From a virus (Duplodnaviria; Caudoviricetes), in the IMG/VR virus record IMGVR_UViG_3300020045_015493, positions 1 to 42,277 of that record: a stretch of 42,277 bases of DNA. One strand, written 5' to 3'. Made by a program: the position numbers and the translations under genes. How positions within the stretch are numbered: the first letter of the stretch is position 1; every line of letters begins with the position of its first letter. Positions 122 through 42,277 of the stretch are shown here, in pieces. The notes below the pieces were generated by a model that made no database searches, had not been told where the DNA came from, and was given only the letters and a program-made list of their open reading frames with translations.

Positions 122-316
122 CGTCCCGCAGGTATGGAATCGGTTTTTTACGGATTTGAAACGATAAAATAAAATAATATTATGAATAAAATTGAGAAGG
201 CAATATTAACAGAACTTAATGAATGGGATTTATCTTGTTCTGAAGAACCAACCTTGAAAATAGAACTTGCTAAGGTATTGGGAAGAGTAGTAAAAAACTG
301 TTCTATACCTGCTGTT
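122..316 (+). repeat. attC-like hairpin site with a long coding loop; the AA of its AAC is missing
   Basis: GCAGGTATGGAATCGGTTTTTTAC (128-151) pairs with GTAAAAAACTGTTCTATACCTGC (290-312), followed by T-GTT at 314. Confidence 0.75.
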
Positions 317-415
317 ATAAAATCGGTTTGCGAACATGATTACCAGAAGGTTACAAAGTATGGTTATAAGTGTAAGAAATGTGGTAAGACAGGATTCTCC
401 CCAATACACGGGTGA
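182..415 (+). CDS. Cassette protein with a C-terminal Zn-ribbon-like module (CEH...CKKC); starts inside the hairpin loop
   Basis: ORF track; GTT at 314 is the in-frame Val of IPAV. Confidence 0.7.
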   Translation: MNKIEKAILTELNEWDLSCSEEPTLKIELAKVLGRVVKNCSIPAVIKSVCEHDYQKVTKYGYKCKKCGKTGFSPIHG

Positions 416-429
416 GCAAACTGTTTTAT

Positions 430-555
430 AACGTTCCGCAAATAAAACCAGTAAAAGATATGAAAGAAGAAATATTAAGCATTGCCAGCGACCTTAGAGA
501 AGGACACATCACTTCAAATGAAGCCAAACGCCTTTTATTTGTTTTATTTGGTGTT
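430..555 (+). repeat. attC-like hairpin site
   Basis: AAC 430-432; CAAATAAAACCAGTAAAAG (439-457) pairs with CTTTTATTTGTTTTATTTG (532-550); GTT 553. Confidence 0.8.
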
Positions 556-711
556 GGCAAATCGTTGCCGATTGGTGACGTAGAGATTTTATTAAAAGGA
601 CTTGAACATATTGGCAAATGGGGCGATGAAGAAGAAGAACGATGGGATGATCCAGGCGATTGTGCAATGGATACACTTACTCAATATCGTTATTCAATGA
701 GTATTCGTTAG
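460..711 (+). CDS. Hypothetical cassette protein; starts inside the hairpin loop
   Basis: ORF 412-711 with probable ATG at 460 (MKEEILS...); reads through GTT 553 in frame. Confidence 0.7.
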   Translation: MKEEILSIASDLREGHITSNEAKRLLFVLFGVGKSLPIGDVEILLKGLEHIGKWGDEEEERWDDPGDCAMDTLTQYRYSMSIR

Positions 712-723
712 GCAATGTTTGCC

Positions 724-806
724 AACGGCCGGGGCTAAACGCAGCCCTTTGTAGAATTTAATGTTAAACCACTGTCGCTGATCAGGGTTGCGTTTTAGCC
801 CTTGTT
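724..806 (+). repeat. attC-like hairpin site (short, 83 nt)
   Basis: AAC 724-726; GGGCTAAACGCAGCCCT pairs with AGGGTTGCGTTTTAGCCC (one bulged T); GTT 804. Confidence 0.85.
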
Positions 807-829: not shown

Positions 830-1015
830 ATGGGAGATTTATTAAGACAGTATAAAGGAAATCAGTCAAATTACGACTGCATTAAAAACGAAGTTCAAAA
901 TTTACTCGATGAACTTGAAAATGTAAATCGACTAAAAGTTAATAATGAATTTAGCGAGGAAGTTCTTAATCATATAAAAGAAATTAGACTGTCAATTATT
1001 TCTATTTCTGATTAA
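830..1015 (+). CDS. Hypothetical cassette protein
   Basis: 61-aa ORF bracketed by GTTACCGCCAGTTAAT / ATTAATTGGCGGTAAC. Confidence 0.75.
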   Translation: MGDLLRQYKGNQSNYDCIKNEVQNLLDELENVNRLKVNNEFSEEVLNHIKEIRLSIISISD

Positions 1016-1061
1016 TTGGCGGTAACTCGTTACTACACGCTATAAAATCATATCAAAAAAC

Positions 1062-4731: not shown

Positions 4732-5553
4732 ATGAATGAATTAAAACCACTTGGGGAAATCCCCAAAAAAGAATCTGAAAAAGTTCAAGAAGTAAAACCG
4801 ACAACAGAGGACGTTAAAAGAGCGGTCGAAAAACAGGTAAAAGAAGTTTGTAATCCTGAAAAACCTGAAAGTTTCAGCCTGTTGCGAAAAATAAACGGGG
4901 AATTGTTTTTTGAACTTGAATTTTCAACTGGCAAATTGGTTGTTTCGGAATCAAAATGCAACCAGCTAATTCCTGAATTTAAAAAAATGACACCGGAGCA
5001 AAAAGAAACATTTTTAATGCAAGCCGCAATTTTCGGAGCAAATCCATTTAGTGTACCTCCAGAAATTTACCCGCTTCCATTTGAATCGAATGGAGTAACA
5101 ATTATCGCCCCGGTGATTTCGGCAAAAAAGTACATTAATAAAGGGATGGAAAATCCGCAATTTGATGGAATGAAATCAGGGGTTGTGATCGAAAAACAGG
5201 ATGGCAGTTTTGATTTTCGCAGAGGCCAAGTTTTCGGGAAAACAGAAATTTTGAAAGGCGGTTGGGCAGAGGTTTTTATCAAAGGATTGAGGGAACCGAT
5301 TTTTAGGAGCGTAAATATCGAGGAGTTCCAAATGCGAAAAAAAGATGGGACACTTAATAAATTTTGGAACGAAACATCTGGAAAGCCAGCTTTAATGATT
5401 GAAAAAGTCGCTCAAAAGCAAGCGATGGAGATAGCGATGCAAATGCCAAAAACCTACATTGCAGAAGAACTCCCGGTCATCGACATTGAACACGAAGATT
5501 TGACAAATCAAAAAGCCATTCCGGCAAACAACGATGAATTTTTTAATAAGTAA
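4732..5553 (+). CDS. bet: RecT/Bet-family single-strand annealing protein
   Basis: Motifs NPF..EIY, FDGMKSGVV, GGWAEV and W..KPALMIEKVA; located between the SbcC-like and MBL genes. Confidence 0.85.
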   Translation: MNELKPLGEIPKKESEKVQEVKPTTEDVKRAVEKQVKEVCNPEKPESFSLLRKINGELFFELEFSTGKLVVSESKCNQLIPEFKKMTPEQKETFLMQAAIFGANPFSVPPEIYPLPFESNGVTIIAPVISAKKYINKGMENPQFDGMKSGVVIEKQDGSFDFRRGQVFGKTEILKGGWAEVFIKGLREPIFRSVNIEEFQMRKKDGTLNKFWNETSGKPALMIEKVAQKQAMEIAMQMPKTYIAEELPVIDIEHEDLTNQKAIPANNDEFFNK

Positions 5554-9995: not shown

Positions 9996-10346
9996 ATGAA
10001 AAAACAAATTGAAAGTTATTCAGAAATTATAAGTGAGTTTCAAATCCGCGAGTTTGATTTAATAATAGAGAACTTAAAGTTAAAGGAAAATTTTGAAAAT
10101 ATGATTAAAGAAATAGAATTGATTCCAATTGCTCAGGATTTTTGTGATTTTAATCTTTTTTCAATTATTTGCATTCCTTCTACTTTAAGTATCGAAACGA
10201 TTGAATTTATGGTTAAAAACAAATCAGAAATTAAACGAAAATTTACGCTCAAGGAAATATTCGCGTTGGATTTCAATGTCCGGGATTTAAAACCAGAAAA
10301 TTTTAAGTCCTTAAAAAACAAATTAAATGAATTAAAAGAAATATGA
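9996..10346 (+). CDS. Hypothetical protein (paralogue of 10343-10711)
   Basis: Shared C-terminal ET.EF..KNKSE.KRK.TLKE..ALDFN.R.L.P.NF..LK.KL. Confidence 0.75.
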   Translation: MKKQIESYSEIISEFQIREFDLIIENLKLKENFENMIKEIELIPIAQDFCDFNLFSIICIPSTLSIETIEFMVKNKSEIKRKFTLKEIFALDFNVRDLKPENFKSLKNKLNELKEI

Positions 10347-10711
10347 ATAGTTCAATTTTTTTAGAGTCTGAATTGATTAATTTTTTTAACCTTAAATATG
10401 CAGAATCTTTTTTTGAATTTTTTAACATGATAAATGAATATGAGAGGTTGACATATATTGCTAATATTATGAATGAAGCCCAATACTATTGTTCTTTTAA
10501 TATTTTTTTGGCATTAAATTATTCACAATATATAAAAATAAGATTTGAAACGTTTGAATTTATCGCAAAAAATAAATCAGAATTAAAACGCAAATTGACT
10601 TTAAAAGAAGTTGCTGCCCTTGACTTCAATATCCGCTATTTACAACCAACAAACTTTAATGATTTAAAACTAAAATTAAAAAATGAAAAATCAATTCATT
10701 CCACGCCTTGA
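10343..10711 (+). CDS. Hypothetical protein (paralogue of 9996-10346)
   Basis: Same shared C-terminus; ATGA overlap with the upstream gene. Confidence 0.75.
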   Translation: MNSSIFLESELINFFNLKYAESFFEFFNMINEYERLTYIANIMNEAQYYCSFNIFLALNYSQYIKIRFETFEFIAKNKSELKRKLTLKEVAALDFNIRYLQPTNFNDLKLKLKNEKSIHSTP

Positions 10712-36859: not shown

Positions 36860-37270
36860 ATTTTAAACATCAATCAAAATAAATGATTTTTAAATTACCT
36901 CACTGTTTTTTAATTTTACCGATCACTTTTTTAATATTTCCTCTTATATTTTATATTTTATATTTATAATATATTATATATCAATAAGTTATATATATAA
37001 ATCGGTAAAAAAATAATAGGTATTATTAATAGAAAAAAAATAAAAATATATACATTAATGGAAAAATTTTTTCCCTTTTTACCGTTTTGGCTTAATTTGC
37101 TGAATTTCAATATTTTGTTGTCGGTAAAAAATATTTTAAAATCGGTAAAAATTTGGATTTTTACCGGGTGTTTTTGGTGTTGTGTGTTTTTTAACGGTAC
37201 TACTATTAATATAATGTAAAAAATAGGTGTTTTTTACCCGGTTTGGTTAAAAATTTTTACCGATAAAAAA
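36860..37270. other. Putative replication origin: AT-rich region with TTTTACCG iterons
   Basis: TTTTACCG/CGGTAAAA at ~36914, 37002, 37076, 37121, 37142, 37158 and 37254, plus a variant at 37231; non-coding, between divergent operons. Confidence 0.65.
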
Positions 37271-37361
37271 TTAGCCACAATGATTACGGGCGAAAATATG
37301 CAGATAGAACTGTACTGCTGCAATATATTTTTTAAATATTTAAAAAATATATTGAAATATG

Positions 37362-37974: not shown

Positions 37975-38155
37975 AGAACTCAAAAAAGAACTTGATTTAA
38001 CCAATAAAGACATAGCCGGGTTCTTTGGCTTGTCGCCTACTGTGTACGCAAATTCAAGCGCAAAAACACGTTATGAAGCTGTACTCTGTCAATTTTTAAA
38101 ATATGTTAAAAAGAAACTCAATGTAGAAGAACAGAGCGACTTAAATAACCCATAA
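37964..38155 (+). CDS. Small HTH-like protein
   Basis: IKELKKELDLTNKDIAGFFGLS; stop codon lies in the TAAC of the first array site. Confidence 0.6.
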   Translation: MTIKELKKELDLTNKDIAGFFGLSPTVYANSSAKTRYEAVLCQFLKYVKKKLNVEEQSDLNNP

Positions 38156-38276
38156 CGGTCGCAAATACCAGCAGTTAGGGATAAAAAGCTCTGACCTGTC
38201 GAGCTGGCAAAAAGTAACAAAAGAGCTTTAAACAATGGCAACGCACGAATACCTTAATTGACTGGTATTTGTTGTT
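38154..38276 (+). repeat. attC-like hairpin site (123 nt)
   Basis: AAC-GGTCG-CAAATACCAGCAGTTAGGG pairs with CCTTAATTG(A)CTGGTATTTG-TT-GTT. Confidence 0.85.
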
Positions 38277-38864: not shown

Positions 38865-38896
38865 AATGGCAGAAACTACCCACAAAACTTTATACA

Positions 38897-39190
38897 ATGA
38901 ACGAAAATTTTAACACAAACGAAACTGACAACAAAGTGATTGATTTTATTAATTATCACGCAGCAAGTTATGTAAATGAATTTATGAACGGTGATTCAAT
39001 AACGAGAGCAAGAATGCAGGAAATTTTAACATCTTTTGGAAAACAATTGCTTGACTGCTATCCGTGCGATGTAAAAGAAACTCTCTACGAGAGTAGTAAC
39101 TGCATTAAACCTGATGTTAGCAAACGTCATCTAATCAAATTATTAAAGATATGGAAGGCAAGCATCCCGAATACCATATTGATGTCGTAA
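38897..39190 (+). CDS. Hypothetical protein reading through a degenerate site (CIKPDV|SKR)
   Basis: GTT at 39116 is an in-frame Val. Confidence 0.65.
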   Translation: MNENFNTNETDNKVIDFINYHAASYVNEFMNGDSITRARMQEILTSFGKQLLDCYPCDVKETLYESSNCIKPDVSKRHLIKLLKIWKASIPNTILMS

Positions 39191-39251
39191 AAAGTTATCT
39201 CGATTATGCGTTGTTAGTGCCAGTATTTTGTTGAATATTAATAATTTATAT

Positions 39252-39584
39252 ATGAAAAAGCAAAAATTATACTTTAGTGATTTCGATGAAGAAAGAGCTT
39301 ATACGCTTGATTACATCATTGATGAAATGAAAGAAAGAGAACTTACAGAATGTGAAGTAGCTGTTGCAACCAGAGACACTGATAAAAGTTATTTCTTTTG
39401 CAGAGCAGTACAGGAAGTTTGCGTTAAACCACCAGAAGGAGAACCATGTGGAAAAGAATGTTGTGACTACGAACCAAGAAATGGGAAGAATGGGTGCTGC
39501 AAATTCAGAGGTTTTTGTTATGAGCCATCTGATCGAAAATTTATTCTTAAAATTAATGGAAAACTTTCGCTATTGCCGTTTTAA
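39252..39584 (+). CDS. Cys-rich hypothetical cassette protein
   Basis: ORF 39228-39584 with probable ATG at 39252; 9 Cys; follows GTTAGTGCCAGT at 39213. Confidence 0.75.
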   Translation: MKKQKLYFSDFDEERAYTLDYIIDEMKERELTECEVAVATRDTDKSYFFCRAVQEVCVKPPEGEPCGKECCDYEPRNGKNGCCKFRGFCYEPSDRKFILKINGKLSLLPF

Positions 39585-39667
39585 TGGGGCTTAACGATTT
39601 GTATATAAGCCGTATTTATTTTATTATCAGTTATAAGTAAAATAATTTAAAAATAAACAGTAAATAG

Positions 39668-39698
39668 TTTGTAAATACAAAGTAAATAACTATTTTTG
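39668..39698 (+). promoter_or_regulatory. Bacteroidota promoter TTTG-N19-TATTTTTG inside the array
   Basis: Exact -33/-7 consensus, 34 nt upstream of ORF 39733. Confidence 0.75.
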
Positions 39699-39732
39699 TT
39701 GAGCAATAATGCAATAACTTATTTTTTATATT

Positions 39733-40005
39733 ATGAAAACTGATATTATTAAATTTTGCTTGTTTGACAGAAAGCCAAACGCAAAAGAACTGTACTACAA
39801 CGAAGATGGTATGATGTATATGTGCGATTCTCCTGAAAAAAATAATGAAATTGGATGGCCAGGCCGAAAGATATACACAATTATACCAACATTAGAAAAA
39901 ACAAATCTTTCCATTGAAGAAATGAAAGATTTGACTGCTTTTGTTTGGAAAAATAAAGTGAAAGACGGAACTGTAATTAATATTAAACACAGTTTTGAAG
40001 TATGA
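39733..40005 (+). CDS. Hypothetical protein
   Basis: 90-aa ORF after the promoter. Confidence 0.75.
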   Translation: MKTDIIKFCLFDRKPNAKELYYNEDGMMYMCDSPEKNNEIGWPGRKIYTIIPTLEKTNLSIEEMKDLTAFVWKNKVKDGTVINIKHSFEV

Positions 40006-40164: not shown

Positions 40165-40287
40165 AACGTCAAATGTAACCGAAGTAGCGGAATTAATATA
40201 GATGAATTATCAATTTACACTAAAAATTATAAAAATGGAAACACTTAAATTACAGCGAGTAACCCGCTATTTTGGTTACATATTGTT
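40165..40287 (+). repeat. attC-like hairpin site (123 nt); first 115 nt duplicated at 42163-42277 / 7-121
   Basis: ATGTAACCGAAGTAGCGG pairs with CCGCTATTTTGGTTACAT; GTT at 40285. Confidence 0.85.
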
Positions 40288-40651
40288 AGCTACCGTGCTA
40301 TTTTCATCTTGCTTAAAAAGAGTGGCTGAATTGAAGCACGAAAAAGGTATCGTAGTTGCAAAACAATATCAAGGAGAAATAAACACAACTGCAACTGGGG
40401 TTGGAATGTCAACATCTGGAAATATGGTTGCAACAACTCATTCCATACATGAAGATGCCAAATTTAACGTAGTGTTTAAATGTGAACATGGAGTTATATT
40501 CACTATAAACAGTGATGAAGTTTACCTTAAAGTAAAAGAAGGCGATACTGTTACAATTGATTATTATGAAATGCTAAATAAAAAAGGTGAGGTAAAGGAT
40601 TTCGATTTTATTGATGCTAATAAATGCACGAAGGCTGCCCAATCATGGTAG
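40202..40651 (+). CDS. Putative lipoprotein whose signal peptide starts inside the hairpin
   Basis: METLKLQRVTRYFGYILLATVLFSS|C lipobox-like (second ATG likely); body flanked by GTTAGCTACCGTG / CATGGTAGCTAAC. Confidence 0.7.
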   Translation: MNYQFTLKIIKMETLKLQRVTRYFGYILLATVLFSSCLKRVAELKHEKGIVVAKQYQGEINTTATGVGMSTSGNMVATTHSIHEDAKFNVVFKCEHGVIFTINSDEVYLKVKEGDTVTIDYYEMLNKKGEVKDFDFIDANKCTKAAQSW

Positions 40652-40653
40652 CT

Positions 40654-40775
40654 AACGGTGAGTGTAACCGCAGTAGCGGATTAAAAAGTAATAACCTATC
40701 AAATTAAACTAACATGAATAAAGAGCAGAAAACTTCGCACCCCACAGAACCCGCTATTGCGGTTGACACTGTGTT
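40654..40775 (+). repeat. attC-like hairpin site (122 nt)
   Basis: GTGTAACCGCAGTAGCGG pairs with CCGCTATTGCGGTT(G)ACAC; GTT at 40773. Confidence 0.85.
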
Positions 40776-41007
40776 AGCACCATTATTTGTTTATGAATTT
40801 CTTTATAATTCGGATTGTTGCGAATGTGCAGCATTGACTATAAGTATTCACAAAACAAAGAAAGGTGCTGAAATGGCAATGGAGTTTCATAAAAACGAAA
40901 AACTAAAAGAGTGGGAAGCGGAATGTAAAAAATATTTATCTTCAAAAGAATATCCATTTGATTTTGACCAATGGTGGGGTGTTCGTGAATGCGAGTTGCT
41001 TCCTTAA
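40714..41007 (+). CDS. Hypothetical cassette protein starting inside the hairpin loop
   Basis: Reads AVDTV|LAP through the site; body flanked by GTTAGCACCATTATT / AATATTAGTGCTAAC. Confidence 0.75.
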   Translation: MNKEQKTSHPTEPAIAVDTVLAPLFVYEFLYNSDCCECAALTISIHKTKKGAEMAMEFHKNEKLKEWEAECKKYLSSKEYPFDFDQWWGVRECELLP

Positions 41008-41017
41008 TATTAGTGCT

Positions 41018-41141
41018 AACGGTTTTGCAGCTATGCAACGGCATGGGGTTAAAAGCACTTCCCTATCAACCGTTGAAAAATTAACTAAGTGCTATAATGT
41101 TGGCTAACCACGTAATCCATGCTGTTGTATGAGGTTCTGTT
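41018..41141 (+). repeat. attC-like hairpin site (124 nt)
   Basis: ATGCAACGGCATGG pairs with CCATGCTGTTGTAT; GTT at 41139. Confidence 0.8.
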
Positions 41142-41164: not shown

Positions 41165-41383
41165 ATGATAAAATTAGACACTTACACAGACGAAAATGTA
41201 TTTGAAGAAGCAAAAAAATACATAAAATCGAATTTGAAAACAGGTGATTACTACACAACATCAATGCTTCAAAGAACTTATAGCATTGGTTATAATAAAG
41301 CTTCTCGAATTTTAGAAATGCTAAGTAAAGAAAAAATCATAAAATTTAGTTCTGATAGAGTGAAAGCTCCGATGGTTCTTTAA
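41165..41383 (+). CDS. Stand-alone FtsK gamma (winged-helix) domain protein
   Basis: TTSMLQRTYSIGYNKASRILEMLSKEKII matches the FtsK-gamma consensus S.S.LQR...IGYNRA.R....L...G.V; flanked by GTTATAGCCAGTTAA / TTAATTGGCTATAAC. Confidence 0.8.
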   Translation: MIKLDTYTDENVFEEAKKYIKSNLKTGDYYTTSMLQRTYSIGYNKASRILEMLSKEKIIKFSSDRVKAPMVL

Positions 41384-41391
41384 TTGGCTAT

Positions 41392-41513
41392 AACGTTGGT
41401 GGTATGGTTAGTTGCCGATTGCGGGCTACTTTCCTATCAAATTACAGATAATTACAAGCGGGTGGTAACGCTTAAATTTAGTACTAATACGGCAATTAAC
41501 TATACCACGGGTT
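41392..41513 (+). repeat. attC-like hairpin site (122 nt)
   Basis: GTGGTATGGTTAGTTGCCG pairs with CGGCAATTAACTATACCAC; GTT at 41511. Confidence 0.85.
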
Positions 41514-41837: not shown

Positions 41838-41847
41838 GCTTGCAGTT

Positions 41848-42046
41848 AACGTATGGTGGTATGAGTATGTTTTTTAACCGATAAAATAGAACGAATATGA
41901 AAGCACATGAATTTATAAGAGAAACATTTGATTTAGACAACAGGACAAGTATAAGTGAACTACCTGATTTACCAATTTCATTAATAGTAGAAATGCTTAA
42001 TAATTACAAGGAAGGTAAGGTTAAAAAATTACTTATACCACGTGTT
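41848..42046 (+). repeat. attC-like hairpin site with a long coding loop (199 nt)
   Basis: GTGGTATGAGTATGTTTTTTAACC pairs with GGTTAAAAAATTACTTATACCAC; GTT at 42044. Confidence 0.85.
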
Positions 42047-42154
42047 GTAGGGCGAAGCGAACAGTTAATTTGCCCTCATTGCGGAAAATATAAAAGCCTG
42101 CAAGGTAATGGAATTATGCACCAACTTTGTGAATGTGGAGAACAAGCAAATTAA
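41897..42154 (+). CDS. Cassette protein with a C-terminal Zn ribbon (CPHC...CEC); starts inside the hairpin loop
   Basis: Reads LLIPRV|VGRSEQL; GTT at 42044 is in frame. Confidence 0.75.
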   Translation: MKAHEFIRETFDLDNRTSISELPDLPISLIVEMLNNYKEGKVKKLLIPRVVGRSEQLICPHCGKYKSLQGNGIMHQLCECGEQAN

Positions 42155-42156
42155 TT

Positions 42157-42277
42157 GCCTACAACGTCAAATGTAACCGAAGTAGCGGAATTAATATAGA
42201 TGAATTATCAATTTACACTAAAAATTATAAAAATGGAAACACTTAAATTACAGCGAGTAACCCGCTATTTTGGTTAC
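42157..42277. repeat. Terminal direct repeat (circular overlap with 1-121)
   Basis: Exact match to 1-121. Confidence 0.95.

Follow-up and report, generated by a model that had tools for sequence, protein, structure and literature searches.

Protein parts are joined in new combinations by shufflons and invertible tail-fibre systems, where a recombination site lies within the reading frame; these systems flip a small, fixed set of C-terminal segments, at conserved double-stranded sites, behind a single constant N-terminus. Tyrosine recombinases of the Xer group act at dif. In integrons, the integrase IntI has been described to cleave within the 5'-AAC-3' of the better-folding attC strand, which is also the one richer in G:T pairs (PMC5027507). 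An insertion in IntI holds the extrahelical bases that set the strand choice (PMC4792948), and for IntI1 the other strand is reported as 1,000-10,000 times less active, while both strands become able to recombine once the extrahelical bases are deleted (PMC5027507). Recombinases found near attC sites without this insertion were judged not to be IntI by Cury et al. (2016, PMC4889954), and Neron et al. (2022, PMC9024848) name one complete integron in Bacteroidetes. The closest phage counterparts are the CALINs of Qi et al. (2023, PMC9892861), whose main text presents 17 of them, with whole-gene cassettes and IntI1 assays. The array presented here resembles them in being an attC-type cluster in a genome without an integrase, and a flavobacterial host is among their cases (Polaribacter phage P12002L, PMC9892861). 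It differs from them in its in-site gene starts, chimeric proteins, exchange at a second end and dedicated short recombinase, none of which is described in that main text (PMC9892861). A search of the literature outside subscription journals returned no published account of read-through genes, of chimeras or of an insertion-less array recombinase.

The DNA analysed (hereafter the window) is the whole of virus record IMGVR_UViG_3300020045_015493, which has 42,277 bases, a 121-nt terminal repeat and a completeness rating of 78%. Its gene content includes a terminase, a portal, a Clp-type protease and a RecT-family annealing protein (4732..5553, + strand; PF03837, E 5e-21), the latter coded outside the array, while no tyrosine recombinase was found among the encoded proteins by Pfam and a genome check. 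The terminase resembles, at low identity, only those of phages of Bacteroides, Flavobacterium and their kin, and most of the 22 genome loci with the array motif are in Bacteroidota records, so the host of the phage is likely to belong to the Bacteroidota. A DNA search of an annotated phage collection gave a single match, of 125 nt. Before the array, an AT-rich, non-coding region (37130-37275) that contains inverted repeats as well as several TTTTTACCG-like motifs is possibly an origin or a regulatory region. At 9996-10711, two paralogous ORFs of 116 and 122 aa lie side by side and have a 157-nt repeat in common, with 71% identity. Sigma-70 promoters were not in excess (23 against 27.9) in a scan whose model does not cover the promoters of Bacteroidota.

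The array starts at 38154, continues across the contig ends and finishes at 1026. It is made of hairpin modules, running from AAC to GTT, which alternate with body modules running from GTT to AAC, and all of the features described below are on the + strand. There are nine hairpin modules, namely eight that were folded as intact stems (38154, 40165, 40654, 41018, 41392, 41848, 430 and 724) and a truncated copy at 42163, plus a tenth at 122-316 without the AAC. Folding of whole modules gave z-scores between -0.87 and -3.48, so that some sites are not significant by themselves, but the pattern is. The first module (38154..38276) is headless and forms its stem with a z of -0.87, and is followed by ORF 38301, which has its own ATG. 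The stretch at 38874..39740 is decayed, with a lone right arm (GTT 39116, crossed by ORF 38897), a lone GTT at 39213 and a lone left arm (AAC 39593). The next two modules carry leaders in the G|TT phase: a 28-aa one at 40165..40287 (ORF 40202-40651, z -3.07) and the 20-aa EPAIAVDTV leader at 40654..40775 (ORF 40714-41007, z -2.54). Hairpins of the 40654 class have one unpaired G on the arm opposite the AAC; no such base was seen at 40165. Two headless modules follow, one at 41018..41141, where the stem forms ahead of ORF 41165, and one at 41392..41513 (z -3.48), which has a 95% match in LR756500.1 and precedes ORF 41541. ORF 41165 (41165-41383) is a stand-alone FtsK gamma domain carried as a cassette (PF09397, E 6.6e-12).

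The hairpin module at 41848..42046 (199 nt, z -1.90) holds in its loop the ATG and the 49-aa head of ORF 41897, and its right arm codes for VKKLLIPR-V. It is continued by a body module of 122 nt with inverted terminal arms (42044..42165), coding for VVGRSEQL and a CxxC..CxC body. The start arm of this body (42052-42061) is longer than the end arm by about 10 bases, which include GCGAAGC, known as an unusually stable DNA mini-hairpin. At 42163..42277 lies a second copy of the 40165 hairpin module, identical to bases 7-121, which starts from the AAC, where its identity to the 40165 copy begins, and ends before its GTT. The module with the head of ORF 182 (122..316) misses the AAC at its base and has TAC (119-121) instead, exactly at the end of the 121-nt terminal repeat; the fold of 119-316 has a z of -2.71. 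At this joint (121/122), the 40165-type copy breaks off inside its right arm and passes into the ORF 182 hairpin at the latter's left arm, creating a 42-aa ORF (44-172). Since the joint sits exactly at the end of the terminal repeat, it represents an off-site crossover or else a branch in the assembly. The module at 430..555 carries the 31-aa head of ORF 460 and forms a stem with a z of only -1.11, and a short headless module (724..806) precedes segment 804-1026, which holds ORF 830 with its own ATG. No hairpin follows the last AAC (1024, within 1012..1045). It lies where the relatives described below have their attI-like site, matches their consensus only weakly, and is followed by ORF 1062 and not by a recombinase.

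A first-pass annotation made from the letters of the window had listed six ORFs as beginning in a hairpin loop and crossing the GTT without a stop. The crossing holds for all six, and the loop start for five. ORF 38897 has no closing stem (folding z +0.77), no left arm could be located for it with up to 3 mismatches allowed, and no relatives were found in viral contigs; with neither hairpin nor relatives, it was rejected as a chimera. The same division applies to the proposal that the stem arm is both structure and code, which stands for the five ORFs with a long-range stem and a coding right arm and fails for ORF 38897. The phases were read correctly: GTT is a Val codon in ORFs 182 (GTT 314), 460 (GTT 553), 38897 (GTT 39116) and 41897 (GTT 42044), and the codon boundary falls at G|TT in ORFs 40202 (GTT 40285) and 40714 (GTT 40773). 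Segments with their own ATG do mostly start with GTTAnnGCCAGT, four out of five doing so (804, 38274, 39213 and 41139; the exception is 41511). For the suggested Zn-ribbon modules, the Cys/His spacing is present while a Pfam family is not, as none of the six ORFs matches one; Atlas gave only weak Zn-ribbon leads for the chimeric proteins, and the single PHROGs match, a weak one to a family of unknown function, was for ORF 182. The three Val-phase ORFs of the chimeric type are ORF 41897 (41897..42154, 85 aa), ORF 182 (182..415, 77 aa, with a Cys/His-rich body in segment 314-432) and ORF 460 (460..711, 83 aa).

Searching heads and bodies separately, as had been proposed, recovered the same head on other bodies and the same body behind other heads, with the break at the Val/Leu junction. 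Homologues do not always align over their full length without a break at the GTT, as shown by matches to the head only and to the body only. The head of ORF 41897 (residues 1-44) was found in 14 proteins, one of them its own, and all of the other 13 have another body; nine keep the Val and then diverge, and four break 1-3 residues earlier. Its body occurs in 34 other proteins, of which 28 keep the Val-arm junction, behind 22 other heads (counted by eye) that do not include the one in the window, and six have the Cys-rich core without the VVGRSEQL arm (P0043-P0048). All four other proteins with the head of ORF 182 have a different body after the Val. No intact homologue of ORF 41897 or ORF 182 was found outside the window's own cluster, their parts occurring in other combinations. 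ORF 460 gave 55 matches: 30 to the head (26 with the Val), 17 to the body (8 directly after a Val), 8 with neither pattern and none to both, in a library holding one protein per 50% cluster, which therefore cannot count intact copies. In the 40654 class, 11 of 14 distinct viral sites have a G|TT-phase leader, spread over nine bodies; the leader of ORF 40714 is on other bodies in two loci (L186, L187), and its body is behind another leader in a third (L201). Among 88 distinct VVG[RQ]SEQ genes, more than one body was seen in six of seven multi-member head clusters and more than one head in seven of eight body clusters, and paired Cys/His motifs are present in 42 of the 88 bodies. The recombination of heads and bodies in ORFs 41897, 182, 460 and 40714 supports the earlier suggestion that exchange at the GTT gives chimeric proteins, and on these comparisons the chimeras are real. 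The bodies of the VVGRSEQL class (L001-L101) have a constant size of 32-39 aa and fixed terminal arms around unrelated interiors, while P0002 and P0102 have a similar interior within different arms. Contigs of run X1 show the same arms joined around other interiors and contain pieces of related modules; the run itself has only 5% of the words of the window and is not from this phage.

The fit between heads and bodies was assessed on 229 sites chosen only by their neighbouring recombinase. Val-phase heads stay open for at least 25 codons past the GTT in 69 of 75 cases, compared with a permuted mean of 30.7 (maximum 41), and G|TT-phase heads in 24 of 28, compared with 8.1 (maximum 15), while the third phase is rare (3/13). 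Neither the length of the spacer nor the opening bases of the body showed a code for the phase, and an out-of-frame joint exists (L120), so the matching of phases probably comes about by selection. With roughly nine in ten heads in frame and no code for the phase seen in the sequence, this selection must be strong. In 11 pairs of heads, hand-picked from protein listings in a way that favours low pN/pS, and with the arm-coded ends left out, uncorrected pS was 0.34 and pN 0.08 (ratio 0.24). The heads thus appear to be under purifying selection, which argues that the ATGs in the loops are used.

The first-pass annotation had allowed that crossover might take place only at AA|C, leaving the genes intact. 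For this array that is refuted, as the partners on the GTT side change too. Three metagenome contigs (L178, L179 and L180) match the window over 41847-42046 with 94-96.5% identity and diverge on both sides, that is from AAC 41848 to GTT 42046, and a fourth (L181), with damaged arms, matches 41868-42041. The window and L178 have 33 identical bases up to the GTT and differ in the first base after it. Of 24 other arms in this class, none has the last 12 bases of head 41897 and one ends in the same 10, so the crossover at this head would lie within about -2 to +4 of the GTT, where no longer homology is available. A survey of 185 loci, 30 of which were dropped as redundant, showed alignment ends piling up at both the AAC and the GTT in the remaining 155. 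Hairpins with loops at least 90% alike formed 17 clusters, of which one with the same flanks throughout was set aside. In the other 16, most of them two-membered and part of the sample having been seeded on arm motifs, the upstream neighbour changed in all 16 and the downstream one in 12; the downstream body was kept in four and the upstream neighbour in none. Both ends of the hairpin are therefore exchange points, with AA|C as the main one and G|TT as a close second.

Several properties of the sites are those of integrons: folded sites closed by AAC and GTT, complementary unit ends, a fold bias for one strand, an unpaired terminal site by a tyrosine recombinase in related loci, and crossover at the AA|C of the better-folding strand, which is deduced here from genomes in which homology starts or ends at the AAC. 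Run on 30 related loci, a site detector picked out 101 sites, and a single one when the same loci were shuffled. Left arms match their own right arms in 44 of 69 loci, picked by the motif after the GTT, compared with 7 of 207 foreign arms. Of 200 sites, 91% fold better on the gene strand than on its complement, and these comparisons indicate that the hairpins are attC-like sites placed antisense to the genes. Over 259 adjacent pairs, the body ends are complementary, with 4.7 of 6 positions pairing with the next site and 2.2 of 6 with their own. In one hairpin class, 96% of inner-stem cells pair and two pairs change on both sides, a score reached by 9 of 500 shuffles; the covariation in this class is modest. 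The sites are almost all oriented alike (324 forward and 10 reversed), five of the reversed ones being separate from forward sites. In one locus (L184, 398-2450), a forward array adjoins a block of five reversed sites whose genes are on the opposite strand, and an inverted repeat of some 100 nt separates the two; this block is either a real inversion or a misassembly. On bacterial contigs the same hairpins accompany relatives of the recombinase. They stand before it, with opposite-strand genes, in L288 and L287, the arrangement in L288 being the usual integron layout, and after it in L285, L286 and L289. Given the better-folding gene strand and the opposite-strand layout on bacterial contigs, the phage genes would be antisense to an ordinary cassette, which would put the start of a gene inside its own site. 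In this the array departs from integrons: its genes start in or after a hairpin instead of ending before an attC, the usual cassette layout having been seen only on bacterial contigs such as L288. Its AAC-side arm also carries 2-4 extra spacer bases, the G|TT end is exchanged nearly as often as the other, and the strict strand choice that keeps a gene with its attC was not observed, the downstream partner having changed in three quarters of the hairpin clusters.

A tyrosine recombinase directly follows the array in three genome loci and four viral contigs (among loci seeded on arm motifs), and one was found within the flanks fetched in 6 of 156 oriented loci. A profile search of viral contigs with this recombinase gave 266 relatives. 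For the best 80 of these 266, uncorrected for kinship, sites occur upstream of the recombinase in 56 of the 57 loci that have 1 kb of sequence on that side and downstream in 4 of the 75 that have 1 kb there, with 235 upstream sites of which 3 are reversed. Before the start codon of the recombinase there is an unpaired terminal AAC site, fixed on its right side and variable before the AAC, with the consensus AAC-TAC-TATATATA and mostly 40-57 nt from the start; this attI-like site is clear in 54 loci among the best 80 of the 266 relatives. The best match of the recombinase is archaeal XerA (NF040815, PDB 5hxy), with all scores under the curated cut-offs, including 124-185 bits for TIGR02249, the cut-off of which is 265. 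As in XerA, XerC and XerD, its best sequence matches, the IntI insertion (I2) is missing, residues 172-196 of the query facing 179-246 of VchIntIA (2a3v), which makes about 43 aa fewer. It differs from the Xer proteins in adjoining hairpin cassette arrays instead of acting at dif, and from integron integrases in the missing insertion and in falling below the TIGR02249 cut-off. Closer relatives of the recombinase are encoded in all five genomes checked. The recombinases on three bacterial contigs (L285, L286 and L289) are longer (347-395 aa) than the 266-278 aa forms and differ from them in that their sites are reversed and lie downstream. Two cultured phages, Leef_1 and Ingeline, carry the short recombinase; in the Polaribacter phage Leef_1 (MT732473.1) it is encoded by Leef1_38, along with four sites and a gene in the Val phase (Leef1_37). 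The paper describing them lists two integrases for each phage, and integrons are not mentioned in the part of its text considered here (PMC8776804). From its position beside the arrays and its sequence, this recombinase is likely to be the enzyme that makes the GTT crossover.

The reading we consider fairly probable is that modules gain new neighbours at both of their joints and that the exchange at the GTT produces chimeras, likely by means of a borrowed, short, integron-like tyrosine recombinase. The hairpins would be attC-type sites whose normally recombined strand is the sense strand of the gene, and crossover at AA|C would move a whole head-plus-body unit, that is an ordinary cassette. 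The enzyme would also recombine the hairpin of the other strand, the AA|C of which is G|TT here, such weak strand choice following from the missing insertion. Excision between two G|TT points would then give a circle of body n and hairpin n+1, in which head n+1 is joined to body n, and the circle could re-enter at either point. In-frame products would most likely be enriched by selection. Supply of the enzyme in trans, by the host or by a co-resident prophage (another phage), is assumed because the phage has no tyrosine recombinase. Several points speak against this reading: free activity on both strands should invert segments, yet reversed sites are rare (10 compared with 324); the other strand is far less active with IntI1; the selection for in-frame heads must be strong; and four of the 13 homologues of head 41897 break 1-3 residues ahead of the Val.

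The rarity of reversed sites also suits a second explanation, in which the GTT joint is produced not by the recombinase of the array but by the process that creates cassettes, a segment being captured beside a hairpin already in place, or else by template switching at the hairpin base. In ordinary cassettes, gene and attC meet at the position of the GTT joint, the formation of cassettes is described as an open question (PMC8618304), and the unrelated interiors within the same arm pairs point to a further process. On the other hand, capture would have had to happen 22 separate times to place one body behind 22 heads, and the two ends of a body are complementary, which is what passage through a circle would predict. 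We regard this explanation as unlikely.

Annealing of the RecT type is a third possibility: the 20-45 nt arm motifs common to many modules could serve to swap heads and bodies, with the enzyme acting only at AA|C. The phage encodes a RecT, the arm motifs recur across many modules, several pairs with the same head have a near-identical body start (L035/L044, L019/L068), and the only same-body pair at the DNA level has 37 common bases after the GTT (L045/L074). Head 41897 however retains its own arm right up to the GTT while its bodies have 0-3 common bases after it, and in 10 of 17 same-hairpin pairs the common run after the GTT is likewise 0-3 bases. As a general explanation this seems to us quite improbable, while short-homology recombination may add to the swaps among bodies of the VVGRSEQL class. 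That crossover occurs at AA|C only, head and body being one intact gene that starts in its own hairpin by chance, is hardly credible, for although AA|C is the more frequent point (the downstream body being sometimes kept, the upstream neighbour never) and in-frame read-through taken alone fits such a reading, the heads and bodies of ORFs 41897 and 182 were met only in other combinations outside the window's cluster.

With the two-ended exchange by a recombinase as the preferred reading, the array is like shufflons in that a recombination site within the reading frame joins protein parts anew, and unlike them in that both halves vary, come from a pool common to phages and keep their orientation. 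The sites are not arranged for shufflon-type flipping, being co-oriented both in the whole set (324 and 10) and upstream of the recombinase among the best 80 of its 266 relatives (235 and 3). Judged from the genomes compared, the array is a real and widespread variant of the integron design, one that shuffles protein halves. A broader reading, which we offer tentatively and which falls a little short of probable in our view, is that Bacteroidota phages run a dedicated combinatorial device for building proteins. A strand-indifferent integron-like recombinase would cut both ends of the hairpin, the heads in the loops and the arm-bounded bodies would form two separately mobile pools with two fixed phases across the phage community, and the second crossover would be a general route for cassettes to gain or swap an attC. 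If true, this would challenge the integron rules of strict strand choice and of the need for the insertion of IntI, and would provide a testable route for how cassettes acquire their attC sites, for which Leef_1 is an existing cultured test system. It would also be a prokaryotic parallel to exon shuffling with phases, and a large class of short 'hypothetical' phage proteins would be head-body combinations made at a defined base.
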